Shown here piece by piece: positions 21,279-54,496 of a stretch of 64,000 nucleotides of DNA (the first letter of the stretch is position 1; every line of letters begins with the position of its first letter). The notes under the pieces were generated by a model. The model was given only the letters and a program-made list of their open reading frames with translations, ran no database searches and was not told where the DNA came from. Made by a program: the position numbers and the translations under genes. The DNA lies in NCBI GenBank assembly GCA_030740155.1, contig JASLXV010000085.1, forward strand, positions 32,001-96,000, in the 5' to 3' direction. The stretch is from Dehalococcoidia bacterium (GTDB lineage: Bacteria > Chloroflexota > Dehalococcoidia > Lucifugimonadales > UBA3495).

Positions 21279-22931
21279 TCATCGGGCCGGATGGCCGGAT
21301 CCCGGAGGCGGAATTTGGAACGGCGGCAACAGGACGGGCAGGGGCACCTCGATGACCACCGGCCGCTGGGCGCGGAGGGCGCTGCGGAGGGCATCTCCCA
21401 GCTCCTGGTGGCCGGAGAGCTTCACCCCCTGTGCACCGTAAACCTCCGCCAGTTGGGAGAAACTGGGGTTGTGGAGCCTGGTCCCGATGGCCCGTCCGCC
21501 GAGGCGGTCCCGCTGCTCGCTGTAGGACGCGCCTAGGGCCCCGTTGTTGAACACCAGGGTGACGGCGTTAATCTCCTCCTGCACCGCGGTGGCCAGCTCG
21601 CTGGAGGCGTACCCGAACCCGCCGTCTCCGCTGGTGGCCACCACCTGCCGGTGAGGGTTGCCCACCTTAGCTCCCAGAGCCGTGGGGAAGGCGTAGCCCA
21701 GGGTGGCGAAGTACCCCGAGGTGATGTAGGAGCGGGGCTTGAGGACCGGGAACGCCAGGTGGCTCCAATACCCGATCTCGGTGGTGCCGCTGATCAGGAT
21801 GGCGTCGTCGTCCAGCTCCCGGCGGATGGTCTCTATGATCTCGACCTGCAAGGGAGCTATCTCCTTGATCTTCTGGTAAGAATCCTGCCGGATCGAGGTC
21901 AGTTCCCCGCCGGTCCACTGGCTGGACCCGGTGGCGCCTCCCAGCTCGTTCAGCAGCGCCTGCAGGGCCAGCCGTCCGTCGGCGGTTATGCCCACGGCCA
22001 GGGGTAGGTTGCGGCCCACCTCCTCGGGGTCGGCGTCGATTTGGATTAGCTTCTGATGGGGCTGAATGCCCCAGGGGAGCTTTGGCGCAAAGTGCATCCG
22101 GCTGCCCACGGCCAGGATCACGTCCGCTTGGGGCAGCACCTGGTGTCCGGGACCGTGGGCGTAATAATAGGCGCCCAGGGACAGGGGGTTGTCTTCTGGA
22201 ATGGCGCCTTTCCCCTGAGCCGTGGTGATTACCGGGGCATTCAGGGCCTGGGCCAGTCCCAAGAGTTCTGCCGAGAGGCCGGCCTCACGGGACCCGCCTC
22301 CGGCCCAGATCAGCGGACGCCGCGCTTCGGCCAGTAGCCGGGCAGCTTCCTTTATGTCCGGCGGCTCCGGGTGCTGCTTGGCAAAGACCTCCCGCTCCGG
22401 CAGCTCCGCCTCGGCGGTCGCCGGTAGGACGTCCCACGGTATCTCGATCTCCACCGGCCGCGGTCTCCCGGTTGACAGGTGCTGCATGGCGGTGTGGACC
22501 AGTCCGGGTATCTCTTCTACCCGGGAGGTGCGGGCACACCACTTGGTGATCTGCCGGAACACCTCCATCTGTTCCCCGATTTCGTGGAGGGCGCCCCGGT
22601 TTTCTCCCAGGTTGTAGCTTTCGATCTGGCCGCAGATCAGGAGCACCGGCGACGAGGTGGCGTAGGCGGTACCCAGTCCGGCGGTGGCGTTGAGGGCCCC
22701 CGGTCCGGGAACGACCAGGCCGACACCTGGCCGGCCGGTGGTGCGGGCGTAGCCGTCGGCCATGTAGGTAACCGATTGCTCGTGGCGCACCAGCACCAAG
22801 CGGATGGCAGGCTCGTCGTACAACGCGTCGAAGGCGTCCATTATCTGAACGCCGGGAAGGGCGAAGACCACGCCGACGCCCTCGCGGGCCAGTGAACGAA
22901 TTAAAGCCTGGGCGCCGCTCATCATCGGCAT
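21279..22931 (-). CDS. Thiamine pyrophosphate-dependent enzyme (acetolactate synthase-like, probably catabolic)
   Basis: RHEQ, GPGALN, TPP motif GDGG...NN; lacks the GQHQMW motif of biosynthetic IlvB. Confidence 0.9.
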   Translation of the reverse strand: MPMMSGAQALIRSLAREGVGVVFALPGVQIMDAFDALYDEPAIRLVLVRHEQSVTYMADGYARTTGRPGVGLVVPGPGALNATAGLGTAYATSSPVLLICGQIESYNLGENRGALHEIGEQMEVFRQITKWCARTSRVEEIPGLVHTAMQHLSTGRPRPVEIEIPWDVLPATAEAELPEREVFAKQHPEPPDIKEAARLLAEARRPLIWAGGGSREAGLSAELLGLAQALNAPVITTAQGKGAIPEDNPLSLGAYYYAHGPGHQVLPQADVILAVGSRMHFAPKLPWGIQPHQKLIQIDADPEEVGRNLPLAVGITADGRLALQALLNELGGATGSSQWTGGELTSIRQDSYQKIKEIAPLQVEIIETIRRELDDDAILISGTTEIGYWSHLAFPVLKPRSYITSGYFATLGYAFPTALGAKVGNPHRQVVATSGDGGFGYASSELATAVQEEINAVTLVFNNGALGASYSEQRDRLGGRAIGTRLHNPSFSQLAEVYGAQGVKLSGHQELGDALRSALRAQRPVVIEVPLPVLLPPFQIPPPGSGHPAR

Positions 22932-24626: not shown

Positions 24627-26051
24627 ATGACAACTGGCGACAACAAGGTCAGAATAGAGCGAGACTCCATGGGACCCATGGAAGTCCCCGCCGGCGCTCT
24701 CTACGGCGCCTCCACCATGCGCGCGGTGCTGAACTTTCCTATCAGCGACCTGCGCTTTCCCCGGTCTTTCATCCGTTCCTTGGGTCTCGTGAAGCTGGCG
24801 GCGGCCAAGACCAACATGGCCCTGGGTCTCCTGGCGGTGAAAGAGGGCAACGCCGTGGTGGCCGCCGCCCAAGAGGTGGCCGACGGAAAACTGGACGAGC
24901 ACTTCGTCCTGGATGTTTTTCAGACCGGCTCCGGCACCTCCACCAATACCAACGCCAATGAGGTCATCGCCAATCGGGCGTCCCAGATACTAGGTGGCGA
25001 CCTCGGGTCCGGCCTGGTCCACCCCAACGACCACGTCAACATGGGTCAGTCGTCCAACGACGTTATTCCCACCTGCATCCACCTGGCGGCGCTGATGGCC
25101 GCCACGGAGGACCTGGTCCCCGCTTTGGAGAAGCTTGAGGGAGCGCTTCGGAAAAAATCCGAGGAATTGTGGCTCGTCATAAAAACCGGCCGCACCCACC
25201 TCCAGGACGCAACCCCGGTGCGGCTGGGCCAGGAGTTTCTGGGCTTCGCCGGCCAGGCTGGATACAGCATTCAACGTCTGGGCAGAATGACGGATGCCCT
25301 GGCCGAGGTGGCACTGGGCGGCACCGCCGTGGGCACCGGGGTCAACACCCACCCGGAGTTTTCCGCCCGCACCTGCCGGCTCCTGTCCGAGATTACCGGA
25401 GTCCAAGTCCGAGAGACGGACAATCACTTCCAGGCTCAGGCAGCCCTGGACGGCGTGGTGGAGGCCAGCGGCATCCTCAAGACCATCGCCATCAGCCTGC
25501 ACAAGATGGCCAACGACATCCGCTTCCTGGCCTGCGGCCCCCGCGCCGGGCTCGGTGAGATACTGGTGCCTGAAGTGCAGCCGGGCAGCTCCATCATGCC
25601 GGGCAAGGTCAACCCGGTGATCTCGGAGTCGGTGATCCAGGTGGTGGCCCAGGTGGTCGGCAACGATGCCACGGTAACCCTGGCCGGCCAAGGTGGCTAC
25701 TTCGAGCTGAACACCATGATGCCGGTGGCCGCCTACAACATACTGCAATCGATCTCCCTGTTGGCGGCGTCCGCCGACAATTTTGCCGAACAGTGCGTCA
25801 AGGGCATCCAGGCCACTGAGACAGGGCCCCAGATGGTGGAAAAGGGACTAATGCTCGGTACCGCGCTGACTCCGGCCATCGGCTACGACGCCGCGGCCAC
25901 CATCGCCAAAGAGGCAGCCGCGACCGGCAGCACGATCCGTGAGATGGCCAAACTCAAGACCAGCCTGTCCGACGCCGAGCTGGACAATCTGCTGAACCCC
26001 GCGGCCATGACCGAGCCGGGCCTGGGGTCCGGCGTTGGTGGCGGGGGCTAG
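24627..26051 (+). CDS. fumC: Class II fumarate hydratase
   Basis: RIERDSMG, FQTGSGTS, HPNDHVN, GRTHLQDA, GSSIMPGKVNP signature. Confidence 0.95.
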   Translation: MTTGDNKVRIERDSMGPMEVPAGALYGASTMRAVLNFPISDLRFPRSFIRSLGLVKLAAAKTNMALGLLAVKEGNAVVAAAQEVADGKLDEHFVLDVFQTGSGTSTNTNANEVIANRASQILGGDLGSGLVHPNDHVNMGQSSNDVIPTCIHLAALMAATEDLVPALEKLEGALRKKSEELWLVIKTGRTHLQDATPVRLGQEFLGFAGQAGYSIQRLGRMTDALAEVALGGTAVGTGVNTHPEFSARTCRLLSEITGVQVRETDNHFQAQAALDGVVEASGILKTIAISLHKMANDIRFLACGPRAGLGEILVPEVQPGSSIMPGKVNPVISESVIQVVAQVVGNDATVTLAGQGGYFELNTMMPVAAYNILQSISLLAASADNFAEQCVKGIQATETGPQMVEKGLMLGTALTPAIGYDAAATIAKEAAATGSTIREMAKLKTSLSDAELDNLLNPAAMTEPGLGSGVGGGG

Positions 26052-26214
26052 ACCCTCCTCCGGCCGGACCCGCAGCACGGCCAATCCGATTACCGGAAGG
26101 GCGGCCCTGGCCTCCCGATCCTGGCCCATGCCGGGAAATGTCTGGGACCCTGCCGGGAACTTTCCGGCGACGCCGGGCGTCTTTGATGGAAAGATTAAAG
26201 ACAGAGGTGGCCCC

Positions 26215-27402
26215 ATGATGAAGCTAATCGTTTTTCTCACATTGGCCGTATCGATCTTCCTGATGGCGTGCTCGGCGGGGGACGACCCACAAGCATCTGT
26301 TGGGTCGTTCGGGGAAGACTCCGCCGAGAACAAAGGAGGCGCTCGGGACGCCGACATGGCACTCCTTTCGGTGGCTTCGGCGCCCACGGCAGCGCCCGCG
26401 GCCACGGCGGCGCCCGGCGCTTCATTCGCTGCCCTGGCCGCGGGGGATGGCCGGGTATCCGGCGCCGCCCTGGAAACCGCCCAGAGGATGGTCATCTCGA
26501 CGGCTTCTATTTCCATCGAGGTGGAGATGGTGCAAACCGCCATCGCCGAGGTGCGGGCCATCGCCGAGAGCCTTGGGGGGTTCGTGGAGCATCTGGACAG
26601 CTCCGGAGGGCCGGAGCGCCAGCGGGCCTCCATGACCGTTCGCGTTCCTCAGGCCCAGTTTGAAACCGCGCTGGGGCGCATCGAAGTACTGGGCGAAGTG
26701 CAAAGCCGTAATGAGGGCGCTTAAGACGTATCGGAGCAGTTCATCGACTTGGAAGCTCGCCTGAAAAGCTCGCTGCGGGAGGAGCAGAGCCTGCTGTCTT
26801 TGCTGGGGAGAACTGGGACGGTGGGCGAAATCCTGACCATAGAACGGGAGTTGGCCAGGGTCCGGTCTGAGATCGAGCGATTCCAGGGCCAGCTCAATTT
26901 CCTGGAAAGGCGAGTGGACCTGGCTACCATATCAGTGTCGCTCTTCCCTCCGGATGAGGAAGTCTCCGAGGCTCCCTCGGCTGCCCTGGTGATCCGGGTA
27001 TCGGATGTCGGCGCCGCCGTGGCGGAGGTCAAAGGCCTGATCGGCACCTATGAAGGAGTCGTGGAACGCGTCTTCCTGTCGCAGCGAAATGACCAGGAGG
27101 AGGCGACCCTCTCCCTCAAGGTGTTTGCCGGCGAGTTCCCGCAGGTAATGGACCTACTGGAAGCGCAGGGCGAGGTGAAGAGCAAGGAAGTGCAGGAGGG
27201 CAGAGTCCCGCCGGGCGGGACGCCAGAGCGTGCCAAGAAGCCCGACGCCAGGATAGACCTCTCTCTGGTTGAAAAGGATGAAGACTCGAACGACGCCCTG
27301 ATAGTGATAATCATCGCGGCTATCGGCGGGGTTTGGCTGATAGCAATTCTGGGGGCCCTGGTCTTCTTGGGCAGCCGCGCGGCGCGACGCCGAGGAAACT
27401 GA
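26215..27402 (+). pseudogene. DUF4349 domain lipoprotein interrupted by an in-frame TAA
   Basis: Lipobox LMAC; the same frame reads EGA*DVSEQFIDLEARL (TAA at 26722-26724) and continues to a C-terminal TM helix. Could be a sequencing error. Confidence 0.75.
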
Positions 27403-27684: not shown

Positions 27685-29385
27685 CTATTGAGGCCCGGTC
27701 CCGTTATGCTGCAGCGGGTTTTCCATGGTATCGCCCAAACCGCCGCCCGGCCGTACCATTGGGTACACGTTGGCCGAGCCGTCGACGACGAATTCGATGA
27801 GGAAGGGGCCTTCGTGGGCTTGGGCCTGGCGGAGGGCAGGGAGGACATCCTCCTGCTCGTTTACGCGCACCGCGGGTACGCCGTAGGCCTCGGCCAGCTT
27901 GACATAATCGGGGCCGGTCAGTTCGGTCGCCTTGATATGCTTTTGAAAGAACAGCTCCTGCCACTGGCGGACCATTCCCAGGGACCCGTTATTGAACAAC
28001 GCGATCTTGATCGGCAGATTCGCCTCGGTCGCCGTCGCCAGCTCTTGCGAGGTCATCTGAAACCCGCCATCGCCGGCGATACTCCAGACCGGCGCGCCGG
28101 GCCGGCCCGCTTGAGCGCCCAGGGCCGCCGGCAACTCGAATCCCATGGTGCCCTGGCCGCCCGAAGAGACGAAGGTGTTGGACTGATTGAAGTAGAGGAA
28201 CTGGGCGGCCCACATCTGATGCTGGCCCACGCCGGTTACCACGACGGTCTCCGGGTTCTCCTGAAGGAGTTCGTTCAAGCTGGCCAGCACCTGCTGGGGT
28301 TGCAGGGTATCGGACTGGGGGATGGCCAGGCATGGATGATGGACCCTCTCGCCGTCGATGAAGTCCATCCACTCCTGCCGCTTGGCGTAGGTCACCAGGG
28401 GCAGCAGCTCCCGAAGCACCCCTTTGGCGTCGCCGACCAGAGGCACCTCCACCGGGACGTTCCGGCCGATTTGAGATGCTTCGATATCCAGGTGAATGAT
28501 CCGGGCGTGGGGCGCGAAGGTGGAGGCCTTGCCGGTGACCCGGTCGTCGAAGCGCATCCCCAGGCCGACGATGAGGTCGGCCCGGTCCACCGCCATATTT
28601 GCCCAGTACATGCCGTGCATCCCCAGCATTCCCAGGCTCAAGGGATGATTTCCCGGGAAGCCGCCGAGGCCGAGAAGGGTGGTGATGACCGGGATGCCCG
28701 TGGTCTCCGCTAGGGCCTTGACCTCTTGGGAGGCGCCGGAAGCCATGACGCCGTGTCCGCTGATGATGAGGGGCCGTTGGGCCTCGTTGATCAGCCGTGC
28801 CGCCCGCTGCACCGCCTCGAAGGTCTCCGGGGACAGGGAAGAAGAAGCCGGCTCGGCGACCTCGGGGAACTCCAACTCGGCTTCTTCAAGTTGAACATCC
28901 CGCGGTACATCGATCAACACGGGCCCCGGCCGTCCCTCCATCGCGGTGGCGAACGCCTCACGGATGGTGGGCGCCAGGTCTTGGGTGGACAGCACCATGT
29001 AGCTCTTCTTGGTGCACGAAGCGGTGATCGAGCAGATGTCGCATTCCTGGAACGCCTCTGATCCCAGCGAAGTCCGGGCCACCTGGCCGGTGATGACCAC
29101 CATGGGTATCGAGTCGGCTTTGGCACTCATGATCCCGGTGACCAGGTTGGTGCCGCCGGGGCCGGAGGTGGCCATGCAAACGCCCACCTTGCCGGTCACG
29201 CGGGAGTAGCCGTCGGCGGCGTGGGCCGCGGCCTGTTCGTGACGAACCAGGATGTGCCGCAGCTGGGGATAACTCCAGAGGGCGTCGTAAAGGGGAAGGA
29301 TAGCCCCTCCGGGATACCCGAAAACGACTTCAACGCCTTCCCGAAGAAGGCTCTCGCAGATGATTTCCGAACCTTTTAGTTTCAA
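27685..29385 (-). CDS. ilvB: Acetolactate synthase large subunit, biosynthetic type (stand-alone paralog)
   Basis: FGYPGGA, RHEQ, ATSGPG, GMLGMHG, RFDDR, GQHQMWAAQ, GDGG, LGMVRQWQ; TTG start. Confidence 0.93.
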   Translation of the reverse strand: MKLKGSEIICESLLREGVEVVFGYPGGAILPLYDALWSYPQLRHILVRHEQAAAHAADGYSRVTGKVGVCMATSGPGGTNLVTGIMSAKADSIPMVVITGQVARTSLGSEAFQECDICSITASCTKKSYMVLSTQDLAPTIREAFATAMEGRPGPVLIDVPRDVQLEEAELEFPEVAEPASSSLSPETFEAVQRAARLINEAQRPLIISGHGVMASGASQEVKALAETTGIPVITTLLGLGGFPGNHPLSLGMLGMHGMYWANMAVDRADLIVGLGMRFDDRVTGKASTFAPHARIIHLDIEASQIGRNVPVEVPLVGDAKGVLRELLPLVTYAKRQEWMDFIDGERVHHPCLAIPQSDTLQPQQVLASLNELLQENPETVVVTGVGQHQMWAAQFLYFNQSNTFVSSGGQGTMGFELPAALGAQAGRPGAPVWSIAGDGGFQMTSQELATATEANLPIKIALFNNGSLGMVRQWQELFFQKHIKATELTGPDYVKLAEAYGVPAVRVNEQEDVLPALRQAQAHEGPFLIEFVVDGSANVYPMVRPGGGLGDTMENPLQHNGTGPQ

Positions 29386-29408: not shown

Positions 29409-29436
29409 AAAAAAACCCGCCCCCTATAGGGACGGG
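29409..29436 (-). terminator. Intrinsic terminator of T-box leader 1
   Basis: Minus strand CCCGTCCCTATAGGGGCGGG followed by T7. Confidence 0.85.
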
Positions 29437-29682
29437 ATTTCTAAGCTCCCGCGGTACCACCCTATTTGCCCCGACATAGTCGAGACCTCTCAGTGAGGAC
29501 ACTAACATGCCCCGCCATCTCTAACGGGCGGCGACCCCGGCTCAGCTTACCTGCCTTTCCAGTTCAGGAAGGCCTCAGCTGGCGGCTCCGGAGGGATTTT
29601 CGAATAAGCTCGGCACACCTGCTCACACCGCACCAGGCTCGCTTTGCGCCTACCCTTATCTACTCGTCTCCATCACAGCTTC
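29409..29682 (-). ncRNA. T-box riboswitch, probable Ile (AUC) specifier
   Basis: Stem I with AGUA/GAA S-turn, AGCGA and GGUGUGA distal motifs; specifier AUC at 29597-29595; T-box AAATAGGGTGGTACCGCGG at 29467-29449; terminator follows. Confidence 0.9.
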
Positions 29683-29691
29683 TAACTGCGT

Positions 29692-29721
29692 AAAGTACCA
29701 CAAATAGTGCCTAGCTGTCAA
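29692..29721 (-). promoter_or_regulatory. Promoter of T-box/ilvB
   Basis: TTGACA-18 nt-(TGG)TACTTT directly upstream of stem I. Confidence 0.65.
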
Positions 29722-29772
29722 TACGGGCTACTTGCGGGCTCGCCTCAATCCTGCCCCGCGTGTCCCTGCCGG

Positions 29773-30796
29773 TCAGACGCTCTCGGACGTGCCGGACCGC
29801 ACTGCTATACCCATCCACCAGTGGCGTCCCTGACCCCTGCGGCGACGGCGGAAACCAAGACCGGTAAGGGCCCAAGCCAAAATTTCGTTGGCGCCACGGT
29901 TTTGCCCGGTTCTCATCGCACCATCTGAGATACGCAACGTAGAGGTCTCTAGCGGGCGCAGCCTGATCGGAGGATACGAGGCACGCCTCCGCTACGAACC
30001 GATTCAGCGAATTGGCCTCCGGCGGGCCGGTGACAGGGGTGCCGCCATCCGCATCCTCTGGTGTGTCCTCTCCCAGGCCGGGAGGCGGACCGGAATCCTC
30101 TTCCTCCAGGGGGGTTACCCTGCGCCTGCCTCCCACGGTGGTGCCCCGTTGGCCATCGAAGAGCTTGCGGCCGCGGGCCACGTTGATACCCGGTGAACGG
30201 GTCGCCGGTTCCCGGGCCTGATCCGAAGATTCTTGGGGCGCCTCTTCCCCAGTACGGAGCATCCAGGCGTTCTCGGTAGCCGGGTCGGTTAGCCAGTTCT
30301 TCACCACCCGTTGGAAATTGCCGGGGATCTCAACCCCCAAACTGCTGGCGACGCGGTTCATGAAGTTGAACAAACAGGTAACCAGGACGATGGAAAGGAT
30401 ATCCTGCTCGAGGAAGCCCGCGTCCCGCAGCCCATCAAGGACGCCCTCGGTCATGGAGGCCGGCTCCACGGTTACCTTCAGCGCGAAGTCCAGCATCTTG
30501 AGGTCTGGCGCGGACAGTTCCGCCTGAGTGTAGTCGGAGAGCAATTGGCTGGCCAGGCCCGAGTCGCCGGAGTGGCGGCGCACGAATCCTCCGTGGGTCA
30601 AGGCCCCGTACCGGCACTGGTTGGCTACTGCCACTACGGTGGCGATAGCCTCCTCTTGAACTCGGCTCAAGGTCGAACCGCCGAAGGCGAGGGTCTCGTT
30701 CAGCCCTTTGACCGCCTCCAACGCCTCGGGGTTCAACGACAGCGCCTGGAAAATCGCGGGCAAGTCTGGCAGGTTTGCTTCTTCAATCCATGACAT
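29773..30796 (-). CDS. AhpD/carboxymuconolactone decarboxylase-like (peroxidase-related) protein fused to a C-terminal winged-helix; +1 frameshift near 29872
   Basis: N-terminal LSRVQEEAIATVVAVANQCRYG...FNFMNRVASSLG; acidic/Pro linker; RFVAEAC...DLYVAYLRWCDEN...QRNFG continues in the shifted frame as LALTGLGFRRRRRGQGRHWWMGIAVR to TGA at 29773. The unshifted frame ends at 29711. Confidence 0.75.
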
Positions 30797-30927: not shown

Positions 30928-31527
30928 TTGATTGGCGGTTTCCAAGGCCCAAAGAGTCCTGATGTGTACATACGCGACGTGGCGCTACTGCCCGCAGAGA
31001 AGGTAACCCATATCTTCTCCGCCGACCTGGGCCTCGCCGACGAGACCCCGGAGGCCGGGCAGGCTTTGATAACCACCAACCGGCGCATTCTGGCCTTCAC
31101 CAAGCGTGAAGGGCGCGACGTAACCTTCGTGGCCTTCGTTGAAGAGCTGAAGGGCGTGGCCGTGAAGGCCGCGTCCCGAAGGGGCGGATCGCTGCTTCAA
31201 AGCCTGCTGCTGGCGGCAGGAGGAATCCTCCTCTACGTGGCCTTCGCCTACTGGGTGACCGGCCGGATTGGCGGCCCGAACATTCCGATCCTCAACATGG
31301 ACTTTGGGCCTTTCATTTTATTGATCGGGGCGCTGCTCGGCGCGGTATTCATCGGCCGGTACTTCTACAGTCAGGGAGATGGCTCGGTCACTTTCCAGGG
31401 AAGTAGCTGGAACTTTGTTTTCGCCTTCAACGGTAACCTCGCCAGTGAAGATATCTACCGGGTGGTCAACACGCTCTTTGCCACCCGCGACTCCTCCATC
31501 GGCTACTCGCTGCTCTGGAAAGACTGA
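30928..31527 (+). CDS. Hypothetical membrane protein (PH-like beta domain with a two-TM hairpin)
   Basis: GGAGGA SD plus TTG; LITTNRRIL bPH-like motif; two hydrophobic helices. Confidence 0.65.
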   Translation: MIGGFQGPKSPDVYIRDVALLPAEKVTHIFSADLGLADETPEAGQALITTNRRILAFTKREGRDVTFVAFVEELKGVAVKAASRRGGSLLQSLLLAAGGILLYVAFAYWVTGRIGGPNIPILNMDFGPFILLIGALLGAVFIGRYFYSQGDGSVTFQGSSWNFVFAFNGNLASEDIYRVVNTLFATRDSSIGYSLLWKD

Positions 31528-52464: not shown

Positions 52465-52750
52465 AAGAAACCCGCTTAGAAAGGGAGTAGTAGGAGTAAC
52501 CGTTCCCAGAGAGCCGGTGGTTGGTGGAAAACCGGTGAAGGCAATACTCCGAACTCGCCCTGGAGCGACCAGCCTGAACTAGAGTAGGGCGCGGCGGCTG
52601 GCACCGTTAACGGCCTTGGAGCAGTTCCGGCATCCGAGTTGGTAATTAGTCAGCCTCAAAGCTGAGTCATGACGACTGGATTCCCGGAAAATAAGGGTGG
52701 TACCGCGGGATCTAACGACTCGTCCCTTTGGGGATGGGTTTTTTTGTTTA
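52465..52750 (+). ncRNA. T-box riboswitch, probable Leu (CUC) specifier
   Basis: AGUA/GAA S-turn, AGAGA and GGUGGAA distal motifs; CUC at 52554-52556; T-box AATAAGGGTGGTACCGCGG at 52690-52708; terminator CTCGTCCC-TTTG-GGGATGGG-T7. Confidence 0.92.
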
Positions 52751-52804
52751 TCGAGGCTCTCACTCCGGCTAAACCAAGCGGAGTGGGAGTCACGGGGAGC
52801 GGGG

Positions 52805-54496
52805 ATGAAGCTAACGGGCGCCGAAATCGTATGTGAAAGCCTCCTGAAAGAAGGGGTGGAGGTTATTTTCGGGATTCCTGGGGGCGCGGTGCTGCCTTTC
52901 TACGGAGCCCTGTCCAAATACCCCAAGATACGGCACATCCTGGTGCGCCACGAACAAGGCGCGGCCATGGGCGCCGACGGCTACGCCCGGGCGACCGGCA
53001 AGGTTGGGGTATGCACCGCCACTTCGGGGCCGGGGGCCACCAACCTGGTTACCGGCATCGCTTGCGCCCAGATGGACTCGGTGCCGATGGTCGCCATTAC
53101 CGGGCAGGTGTCCCGGGCGGTCTTGGGAAGCGATGCTTTCCAGGAGATCGACATGACCGGGATCACCCTGCCCATTACCAAGCACAACTACCTGGTCATG
53201 AACGTCGCGGAAATTGCCGGAGTCATCAAAGAGGCGTTTCACATCGCCCGGACCGGGCGGCCGGGGCCGGTACTGGTGGACCTGCCCAGGGACGTGCTCC
53301 AGGACGAGCTGACGGAGTTCGTCTGGCCCGAGACAATCAGCATTGCTGGCTACAATCCGCCCGGCGATGCGGACCCGGAACAGGTGGCCGAGGCGGCCAG
53401 GCTGATCAACCAGGCGGACCGGCCCGTTATCGTGGCCGGACATGGGGTGCTCATTTCCCACGCCTACGGAGAGCTGCGGGAGTTTGCGGAGAAGACCCAG
53501 ACACCGGTGGTCACCACCCTGCTGGGCATCAGCTCATTGCCCACGGACCACTACCTGAACCTGGGCATGGCGGGAATGCACGGCCTGGCCAGCGCGAGCC
53601 TGGCGGTCGACAAGTCCGATCTGATCATAGCCCTGGGAATGCGGTTCGACGACCGGATCACGGGGCGCCTGAGCGACTTCGCTCCCAATGCCAAGGTGAT
53701 CCATGTCGACGTGGACCCTTCGGAATTGAACAAGAACGTCCAGGCGAATGTGCCCATAGTTGGGGATCTCAAGTGTTTCCTGCAACAGCTCATGCCCCTG
53801 GTGGAGCCCAAGGTCCACATCGACTGGCTGCGTAGCGTCGACACCCTGTGGACCGAGCACCCGACGGCGCACATCCGGCAGACCGAGGAGCTGCTGCCCC
53901 AGTTCGTGCTGCGGAAGCTTTCGGAGGCGACCCAGGGAGACTCGATCATCGTGACCGGCGTGGGGCAGCACCAGATGTGGGCCGCCCAGTTCTGCGCCTT
54001 TAACGAGCCGAACACGTTGATTACGTCGGGCGGGCTGGGCTCCATGGGTTATGAGGTCCCCGCCGCCCTGGGAGCCAAGTTGGGACGGCCGGATAAGACC
54101 GTCTGGTCCGTCGCCGGCGACGGCGGCTTCCAGATGACCTTGTGCGACCTGGCTACAGCCGCGGAGAACAACATCGAGGTGAAGTTCGCCATTCTAAACA
54201 ACGGGTCCCTGGGCATGGTGCACCAGTTGCAGGACCTGTTCTTCGACCAAGACTATTTTGCTTCCCAATACACGGCCAACCCGGATTTCGTCAAGCTGGC
54301 CGGAGCCTACGGGATTCATGGGATTCGGGTCACCGCGAAAGACCAGGTGAACGGGGCAATCCAAGAGGCGATGGAGACTCCCGGCCCGGTGATCATCGAC
54401 TTCCGGGTCGTGGAAGAGAACGTGTACCCGACGATCCCGGCCGGGAAATCCGTCAACGACATGATAGAGGAACCGGCGCCGGAGGGCATTCACTGA
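52805..54496 (+). CDS. ilvB: Acetolactate synthase large subunit
   Basis: FGIPGGA, RHEQ, TSGPGATN, GMHG, RFDDR, GQHQMWAAQ, GDGG; ATG 52805. Confidence 0.95.
   Translation: MKLTGAEIVCESLLKEGVEVIFGIPGGAVLPFYGALSKYPKIRHILVRHEQGAAMGADGYARATGKVGVCTATSGPGATNLVTGIACAQMDSVPMVAITGQVSRAVLGSDAFQEIDMTGITLPITKHNYLVMNVAEIAGVIKEAFHIARTGRPGPVLVDLPRDVLQDELTEFVWPETISIAGYNPPGDADPEQVAEAARLINQADRPVIVAGHGVLISHAYGELREFAEKTQTPVVTTLLGISSLPTDHYLNLGMAGMHGLASASLAVDKSDLIIALGMRFDDRITGRLSDFAPNAKVIHVDVDPSELNKNVQANVPIVGDLKCFLQQLMPLVEPKVHIDWLRSVDTLWTEHPTAHIRQTEELLPQFVLRKLSEATQGDSIIVTGVGQHQMWAAQFCAFNEPNTLITSGGLGSMGYEVPAALGAKLGRPDKTVWSVAGDGGFQMTLCDLATAAENNIEVKFAILNNGSLGMVHQLQDLFFDQDYFASQYTANPDFVKLAGAYGIHGIRVTAKDQVNGAIQEAMETPGPVIIDFRVVEENVYPTIPAGKSVNDMIEEPAPEGIH

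Follow-up and report, generated by a model that had tools for sequence, protein, structure and literature searches.

The minus-strand open reading frame at 30796 to 29711 of the window (the whole 64,000-nucleotide stretch that was analysed) encodes 361 aa in the deposited frame and joins an AhpD-like domain to a C-terminal winged helix (wHTH). The AhpD-like/wHTH fusion is a conserved architecture and not a chimera. Sequence comparison indicates that the ancestor of the enzyme half was a CxxU selenoprotein, the SECIS-like stem of which has decayed here, and the fusion is probably a lineage-specific, accessory and dispensable nucleic-acid-binding protein of one SAR202 family.

Overall architecture of the fusion

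The elements of the fusion gene and its conserved neighbours are positioned in the window as follows.

30251 to 30796, minus strand: AhpD-like domain (TIGR01926, peroxidase-related), aa 1–182, from profile matches and the residue equivalence given in PMC4674687
30605 to 30616, minus strand: CRYG motif, aa 61–64, with Gly64 at the position of the in-frame TGA of close paralogues (CxxU)
30578 to 30594, minus strand: remnant of a decayed SECIS-like stem, 4 of 7 pairs remaining by pair count
30011 to 30250, minus strand: acidic/Pro/Gly low-complexity linker, 80 aa (aa 183–262)
29873 to 30010, minus strand: N-terminal two thirds of a D5/P4-type wHTH, in frame, aa 263–308
29871 to 29873, minus strand: GGG run with one extra base, absent from intact alleles by allele comparison
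29773 to 29871, minus strand: remainder of the wHTH (end of the putative recognition helix, basic RRRRRGQGRHWW wing and stop), out of frame
29711 to 29872, minus strand: out-of-frame tail of the window allele, 53 aa (aa 309–361)
30928 to 31527, plus strand: 199-aa gene, function unassigned, divergent, conserved upstream neighbour
29425 to 29685, minus strand: T-box leader of ilvB, conserved downstream neighbour, with its terminator at 29436–29416
27685 to 29385, minus strand: ilvB-like acetolactate synthase large subunit, conserved downstream neighbour

An earlier sequence-only reading had described an AhpD domain with CRYG in place of CxxC, a linker of about 80 aa rich in acidic residues and proline, and a P4/D5-type wHTH with its last part in the +1 frame, and this layout holds. 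The deposited ORF scores 110.9 bits against TIGR01926, above the cut-off of 81.8, and the best matches of the AhpD-like domain to PDB sequences reach E 1.5e-24 (2PRR at E 7e-19). E49, C61, Y63 and H68 of the proton relay are retained; Gly64 (codon GGG, 30607–30605) occupies the second redox position, and the CxxC or CxxU dyad is missing from the protein. The linker of the window ORF contains 16 D/E, 9 K/R and 11 P, and among 70 homologues it ranges from 36 to 235 aa and is not alignable. Profile searches found no D5_N or SF3 helicase domain within the fusion ORF, and PADLOC anti-phage defence models matched 0 of 5 proteins.

Conservation and breakage of the fusion

A protein search returned 106 matches, and 88 of the best 94 bear the motif; the remaining 12 of the 106 are ordinary CxxC proteins at 32–36%. 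Among the 88 motif-bearing homologues the wHTH is found in 70 and is complete in 66, a recurrence that excludes the chimera which the sequence-only reading had proposed to check for by seeking the same architecture in other genomes. Many orthologues carry PF03288. The relatives' genomes are those of Dehalococcoidia, Chloroflexota or SAR202, apart from two of uncultured bacteria, and one homologous protein is labelled Acidobacteria.

The gene order tsaD, 199-aa gene, fusion, T-box and ilvB is conserved and often extends to tilS and DUF4349. Two tandem DUF4349 genes lie at 26035–27402 (plus strand) of the window, and three acetolactate-synthase-like TPP enzymes are encoded within the 64 kb (21279–22931, 27685–29385 and 52697–54496). 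A TTGACA-N18-TACTTT site was seen by eye before the T-box (29692–29721, minus strand), below the threshold of the promoter scanner (0 found), and the frameshifted ORF reaches into its −35 box. Regulation of ilvB by the fusion, or leucine sensing as in Sestrin2, is unsupported; ilvB has its own T-box and wHTH-less CxxG genes lie at the same place. By eye, no shared operator was seen upstream of 17 fusion genes (family A) or of 16 genes of the related family B described below.

Among 120 other genomes of the family, 15 have an uninterrupted non-Sec copy at E<=1e-40, comprising six long fusions, six stand-alone and three truncated copies as judged by open-frame length. The AhpD part was unmatched in the one same-genus genome searched, which is 90% complete. 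Of 43 loci examined, 19 hold both domains, 11 intact and 8 broken by about six separate events, with the window locus counted as broken; the automatic measure had reached only up to the shift and scored it as intact. Part of the fusion breaks may be assembly errors, and breaks in tsaD, ilvB and the upstream gene of the same loci number 0 in 53 observations. The broken loci, together with the loss of the wing from the window allele, mark the fusion as accessory. In six genera the wHTH is nonetheless kept, evolving about as fast as the enzyme domain. Its tree is 1.18 times the length of the AhpD tree (68 fusions) and 15 wHTH columns are invariant across 45 sequences, which together argue for purifying selection on the wHTH; R317, R319, W326 and W327 of the wing are invariant in the 45 sequences.

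Two further arrangements were seen among wHTH-less CxxG genes. In one of them (L056:5459-8170), about 2.7 kb of foreign sequence interrupts the gene near codon 90. A gene for a 101-aa CMD-family protein (PF02627; L096:3641-3946, and upstream in L100 and L185), a possible partner, often precedes stand-alone CxxG genes.

A common frameshift allele

A single extra G after Leu308 (GGG, 29871–29873) shifts the frame in the window. The next frame after Leu308 gives ALTGLGFRRRRRGQGRHWWMGIAVRSGTSESV, which completes the wHTH and ends at the TGA at 29775–29773, exactly where the sequence-only reading had ended the gene; this out-of-frame part corresponds to aa 309–340 of the intact allele. Recognition helix and wing were assigned by alignment to 1dp7; on this alignment the shift interrupts the putative recognition helix and the basic wing is lost, so that the window allele is probably unable to bind DNA.

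The frameshift is a natural, common population allele and the majority allele in the species. In the 90% cluster of 13 same-species proteins, 10 have the shifted tail and 3 are intact 340-aa proteins, and the contig records behind the cluster, which may repeat samples, include 31 shifted and 4 intact. Among the four sequencing runs compared, from which small-share runs were left out, X11 (which may be the source of the window DNA) and X14 have the extra base and X13 is without it. One depth-2 contig of the RNA library X15 is also without it; RNA-library contigs span only parts of the fusion gene and are no evidence of transcription. Locus L168, which shares 99.7% identity with the window, is intact, and both alleles are found on three amino-acid backgrounds, which could reflect recombination, recurrence or consensus mixing.

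An assembly error or chimera is excluded, as each allele was recovered from separate assemblies and runs and the architecture recurs. Programmed frameshifting or phase variation is unsupported: the run differs only as 2 versus 3 G, and in-frame alleles exist. Nor is an error-rich genome indicated by the split of the adjoining DUF4349 genes, since the identical split is present in three relatives.

Selenoprotein ancestry of the AhpD-like domain

The sequence-only reading had taken CxxC to be the ancestral motif; the lost residue is instead selenocysteine, as the close paralogues are CxxU. Motifs could be read at 159 of 160 loci, with TGA at the fourth position in 120 and another codon in 39 (35 Gly). 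A wHTH, ilvB or tsaD neighbour is found at 0 of the 120 CxxU loci, whereas ilvB adjoins 22 of the 39 non-Sec loci. Six of the 39 use GGA, one step from TGA. In the 88 homologues position 4 is Gly in 82, Asn in 3 and Ser, Glu or Ala in one each, with Cys in 0 of 88, and more distant homologues are likewise CxxU.

In the CxxU paralogues a SECIS-like 7-bp stem follows the TGA at a distance of 10 nt. All 7 pairs are present in 55 of 64 distinct sequences, with compensatory changes at one pair, and in 0 of 26 non-Sec sequences. CxxU and CxxG could not be told apart by the folding-energy z-scores of five short stretches; the pair count separates them. The compact SECIS-like hairpin is conserved in SAR202 AhpD-like selenoprotein genes (loci L101–L167 and L193–L247), and several genomes hold multiple CxxU paralogues. 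CxxU AhpD-like families are described as abundant in marine metagenomes (PMC2398784), and TIGR01926 CxxU selenoproteins are listed in PMC13188914; the SAR202 CxxU paralogues could already stand in supplementary selenoproteome tables.

The CxxU sister group forms a clade (96/99) and the fused members group only at 71/76, while a single clade of the CxxG set is neither supported nor rejected (p-AU 0.305). The first AhpD tree had its root among the fused members, where a long outgroup branch joined, and this root was disregarded. The host genome retains selA and tRNA-Sec, and a CxxU copy stands beside a CxxG copy in at least six genomes; CxxG therefore looks like divergence after duplication. Codon and SECIS are both decaying, leaving a clear record of a selenoprotein that abandons the Sec code while moving towards a new role.

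Identity of the winged helix

The C-terminus is supported by profile matches as a wHTH of the P4/D5-primase type, as had been read from the sequence alone. A profile of 20 wHTH sequences matches the C-terminus of a D5_N primase at 99.3% (hhalign; primase identity confirmed) and human RFX1 (1dp7) weakly, at E 0.048. On the deposited ORF, Pox_D5 reaches E 1.3e-3 (19.5 bits, the cut-off being 21.4) and the TIGR01613 primase_Cterm model E 5e-4, well below its cut-off, and PHROG primases match a 52-aa piece of the wHTH region at E about 1e-5. For the intact natural allele P0110 the Pox_D5 score is 21.2 bits against the same cut-off and RFX gives E 0.042; a search of P0110 in the Atlas gave no usable match. 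The isolated pfam03288/RFX-type wHTH of pRN1 ORF904 is reported to bind single- and double-stranded DNA weakly (about 2 uM) and cooperatively, with no sequence preference and no site found (PMC2777425).

The same type of domain was also seen elsewhere. P0152, of 584 aa, joins an ECF-type sigma factor (sigma70 r2 and r4) to three D5-type wHTHs alternating with HTHs, an independent recruitment of this domain into a transcription protein. P0188, P0209, P0210, P0220 and P0283 consist largely of three or four D5-type wHTHs in tandem and have no helicase, and P0205, P0212 and P0204 carry a wHTH of RRRxGxxHWW type on other N- or C-terminal partners, outside families A and B. Non-primase D5-type wHTH proteins are encoded in other Dehalococcoidia families as well (L084, L085 and L087; L069, L071, L072 and L074). 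These last, non-primase proteins suggest that the D5-type wHTH has been domesticated repeatedly.

A resident family B as the probable wHTH donor

Family B (G000:C54:25859-26749; L041:5899-6753) combines a tentative HEPN-like domain with the same wHTH of RRRRGxGRHWW type. It is present in the window's genome and in the 16 relatives examined, a zinc-dehydrogenase gene usually lying upstream (14 of 17 loci). The wHTH subtype occurs in 182 of 200 family genomes, mostly as a single copy, and the N-domain of family B, single-copy, in 51 of 60 family genomes versus 1 of 300 genomes of the phylum, there as a stand-alone protein. Family B is mostly intact, with a complete wHTH in 113 of 117 members. 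The HEPN assignment comes from an Atlas lead to PF18736 at 0.87, below the 0.9 mark, with no Pfam HEPN match and nothing meaningful for the family B profile among PDB sequences. The stand-alone homologue L249 has RNAFAH, a motif of the HEPN type Rx4-6H as defined in PMC3710099; at these columns family B has Arg in 0 and His in 7 of 117 sequences, so the motif has been lost.

The sequence-only reading had proposed capture of a DNA-binding domain from a mobile element. The primase-type ancestry stands; direct capture is disfavoured, as the window wHTH is 47% identical to the family B protein of the same genome versus 24% to its D5_N primase. Median identity of the intact window wHTH is 58% to family A, 48% to family B and 38% to primases. 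The nearest wHTH relative is thus a resident chromosomal protein, and we infer that the wHTH was probably acquired second-hand from family B and not directly from a primase. In 300 genomes of the class the best matches other than families A and B lie at E>=1e-18; 19 of 27 such loci have an in-frame Walker A, and D5_N was confirmed in all four scanned. The best 150 matches among 1.8 billion representatives comprise 7 of family A, 28 of family B, 38 primase-like and 77 others, 23 of the 77 bearing the motif and being mostly linker-plus-wHTH fragments by eye. The wing/wHTH pattern was confirmed in 0 of 22 viral contig candidates.

In a 74-column wHTH tree, short branches unite families A and B, and most primases lie outside this group (80/97). 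Family A is not resolved from family B there, and five primase-type or other rows fall among them with weak support; it is accordingly similarity and distribution that point to family B as the donor. Direct recent capture from a primase or prophage is disfavoured by the identities, by the distribution and by the gene content of the window. In line with the sequence-only reading, no phage gene was found nearby: of the window's 81 ORFs >=200 aa, the 51 searched matched neither a primase nor an integrase nor a structural phage family at E<=1e-20, and gave one ParA-like match. The window has no tRNA gene and no GC anomaly, and the sole D5_N primase of the genome is on another contig (C84).

The Cys61 site

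By spacing, E49, C61, Y63 and H68 correspond to Glu74, Cys86, Tyr88 and His93 of 2PRR (PMC4674687), and the proton relay of AhpD-type proteins is described in PMC3141380. The Sesn-A domain of Sestrin2, which has the first Cys only, reduces cumene hydroperoxide through a reversible sulfenic acid (PMC4674687), and CRYG need therefore not be dead. The fusion likewise has the first Cys, Tyr and His with no second Cys (C61, Y63, H68 and G64). The Cys itself varies in the fusion family: C61 is kept in 82 of 88 homologues and replaced in six (Ser in five, Tyr in one), on six separate tips that all keep the wHTH. Over a tree length of 15.0 these are six changes among 88, versus 0 among 108 CxxU paralogues over 14.4. 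E49 and Y/F63 are kept in 88 of 88 and H68 in 87 of 88; E48, E49, A65 and R148 never change, H68 changes once, and 81 of 180 sites are at least as constant as C61. By this comparison the pocket is more strictly kept than the thiol.

Model for the origin and function of the fusion

From the architecture, distribution, synteny, motif states and allele polymorphism, all observed directly, we infer an order of events, oligomerisation, DNA binding and a possible regulatory role. A primase-type wHTH would have been domesticated once in the family ancestor, as family B. Separately, a CxxU AhpD-like selenoprotein would have duplicated, one copy losing Sec (now Gly) and its SECIS; this copy may then have settled before T-box-ilvB and, in a subset of genera, gained a family-B-type wHTH by way of a long acidic linker. 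The AhpD-like domain would no longer be a two-thiol peroxidase and would chiefly provide a platform for oligomerisation, in which the invariant E48, E49, H68 and R148 may surround a ligand pocket. Several weak wHTHs presented together could bind DNA avidly, as a regulator or a nucleoid-associated protein. AhpD-like proteins are oligomeric in the cases described, 2PRR as a dimer and PA0269 as a hexameric ring (PMC4674687, PMC3141380). We tentatively prefer this reading, in which the degraded AhpD-like scaffold, possibly ligand-binding, multimerises a domesticated wHTH into an accessory DNA-binding protein, and hold it to be somewhat short of probable.

For the redox or ligand sensor proposed by the sequence-only reading, Cys61 stands in a Sestrin-A-like setting, but its weaker constraint than in the enzyme paralogues argues against an obligatory thiol switch. 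As a one-component sensor, a hydroperoxide would sulfenylate Cys61 (cf. Cys125 of Sestrin2) and alter the release of the wHTH from the acidic linker or its DNA binding. The match of E49/C61/Y63/H68 to the 2PRR relay, the activity and sulfenylation of one-Cys Sestrin-A (PMC4674687) and the retention of C61 and H68 in 82 and 87 of the 88 homologues favour such a switch, but the Ser or Tyr at C61 on six wHTH-keeping tips, against none in 108 CxxU paralogues, weakens it, and tight allosteric coupling is hard across an unconserved linker of 36–235 aa; we consider it unlikely. The protein might instead be a one-Cys alkylhydroperoxidase that is still active and that a non-specific wHTH keeps at the nucleoid, protecting DNA locally as a Se-independent back-up of the CxxU enzyme. 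Four of the five relay residues are kept, the pRN1 wHTH has no sequence preference (PMC2777425), and wHTH-less CxxG forms at the same ilvB locus imply that the CxxG domain has a use alone. This proposal appears decidedly improbable, given the relaxed constraint on Cys61, the CxxU copy kept by at least six genomes and the conserved neighbourhood, in which no reductant partner was seen.

The breakage pattern bears on a nearly neutral passenger, a duplicated wHTH added to a dispensable paralogue in a fusion that is now decaying. The 8 of 19 broken loci against 0 of 53 neighbour-gene observations, the frameshift allele in 10 of 13 proteins of the species and the same-genus genome with no match to the AhpD part (90% complete) are all as expected of a passenger. 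Conservation of the wHTH across six genera at about the enzyme-domain rate, however, needs long purifying selection, and some breaks may be assembly errors, so we rate a passenger as quite unlikely. The wHTH could also be a protein–protein module through which the fusion heterodimerises with the wHTH of family B and modulates it. Winged-helix homo- and heterodimers are reportedly described in a paper on the P4 origin-binding domain, and family B is near-universal, present in the window's genome and 47% identical in its wHTH; against this, conservation is highest on the basic Arg/Trp wing, a surface expected to contact nucleic acid, and the two genes are unlinked, which leaves heterodimerisation very unlikely. 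If the intact protein binds DNA, the reuse of a replication-origin domain of mobile elements as a host DNA-binding module can be traced here twice, on a catalytically degraded enzyme in each case. That the fusion is patchy and often broken tempers its significance. The regulon is better sought through family B, which the majority of the family's genomes carry and which is almost absent from the other genomes searched; family B is probably the more important protein of the two.

Comparison with known systems

One-component regulators in which an inactivated-enzyme sensor is joined to a DNA-binding domain are a known class, and ECF41 sigma factors are reportedly linked to CMD genes (PMC3426412); in both, as in the fusion, an enzyme-derived domain is joined or linked to a DNA-binding domain. 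Literature searches, covering few subscription journals, found no AhpD-like fold or D5-type wHTH in such regulators and no description of the AhpD-like plus wHTH architecture. Each domain is known, and their combination is probably undescribed.

P4 alpha, D5 and pRN1 ORF904 (PF03288) and the RFX proteins (PF02257) give profile matches to the wHTH and share its pattern of F..C, LY..Y..WC, FG..L..GF and W.G. The fusion lacks the primase and helicase domains of the P4/D5/pRN1 primase-helicases as well as a mobile element around it, and its derived RRRRGxGRHWW wing, common to the fusion and family B, distinguishes it from primase wHTHs. Family B has the same wHTH subtype C-terminal to a variable linker and a degraded-enzyme-like N-domain, but this domain is unrelated to AhpD, and family B is near-universal and mostly intact. 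HEPN domains dimerise. Both SAR202 proteins thus join a degraded and probably oligomeric enzyme fold, by way of a flexible tether, to the same wHTH. A broader proposal, which we regard as speculative and unlikely, is that the origin-binding winged helix of a phage or plasmid primase founded a class of transcription factors specific to one SAR202 family, parallel to RFX, with two members on disarmed enzymes (one HEPN-like and near-universal, the other an ex-selenoprotein acting as a Sestrin-like one-Cys sensor of peroxide or a ligand).

The members of the TIGR01926 family (2PRR, 2PFX, 3C1L, 2OYO and 6K40) share the relay Glu, Cys, Tyr and His with the fusion, which scores above the family cut-off; the fusion differs from them in having no second Cys or Sec, a decayed stem, and an added linker and wHTH. 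Sestrin2 Sesn-A likewise combines an AhpD/2PRR-like fold, in which the first Cys is the only one and Tyr and His are spaced alike, with an effector part that is not catalytic (PMC4674687). In the fusion, likened to it by residue spacing, the effector is a wHTH and not a second AhpD-like domain, and the Cys varies. The resemblance to Sestrin2 is likely a convergence, and the parallel in motif offers a bacterial test of one-Cys AhpD chemistry.
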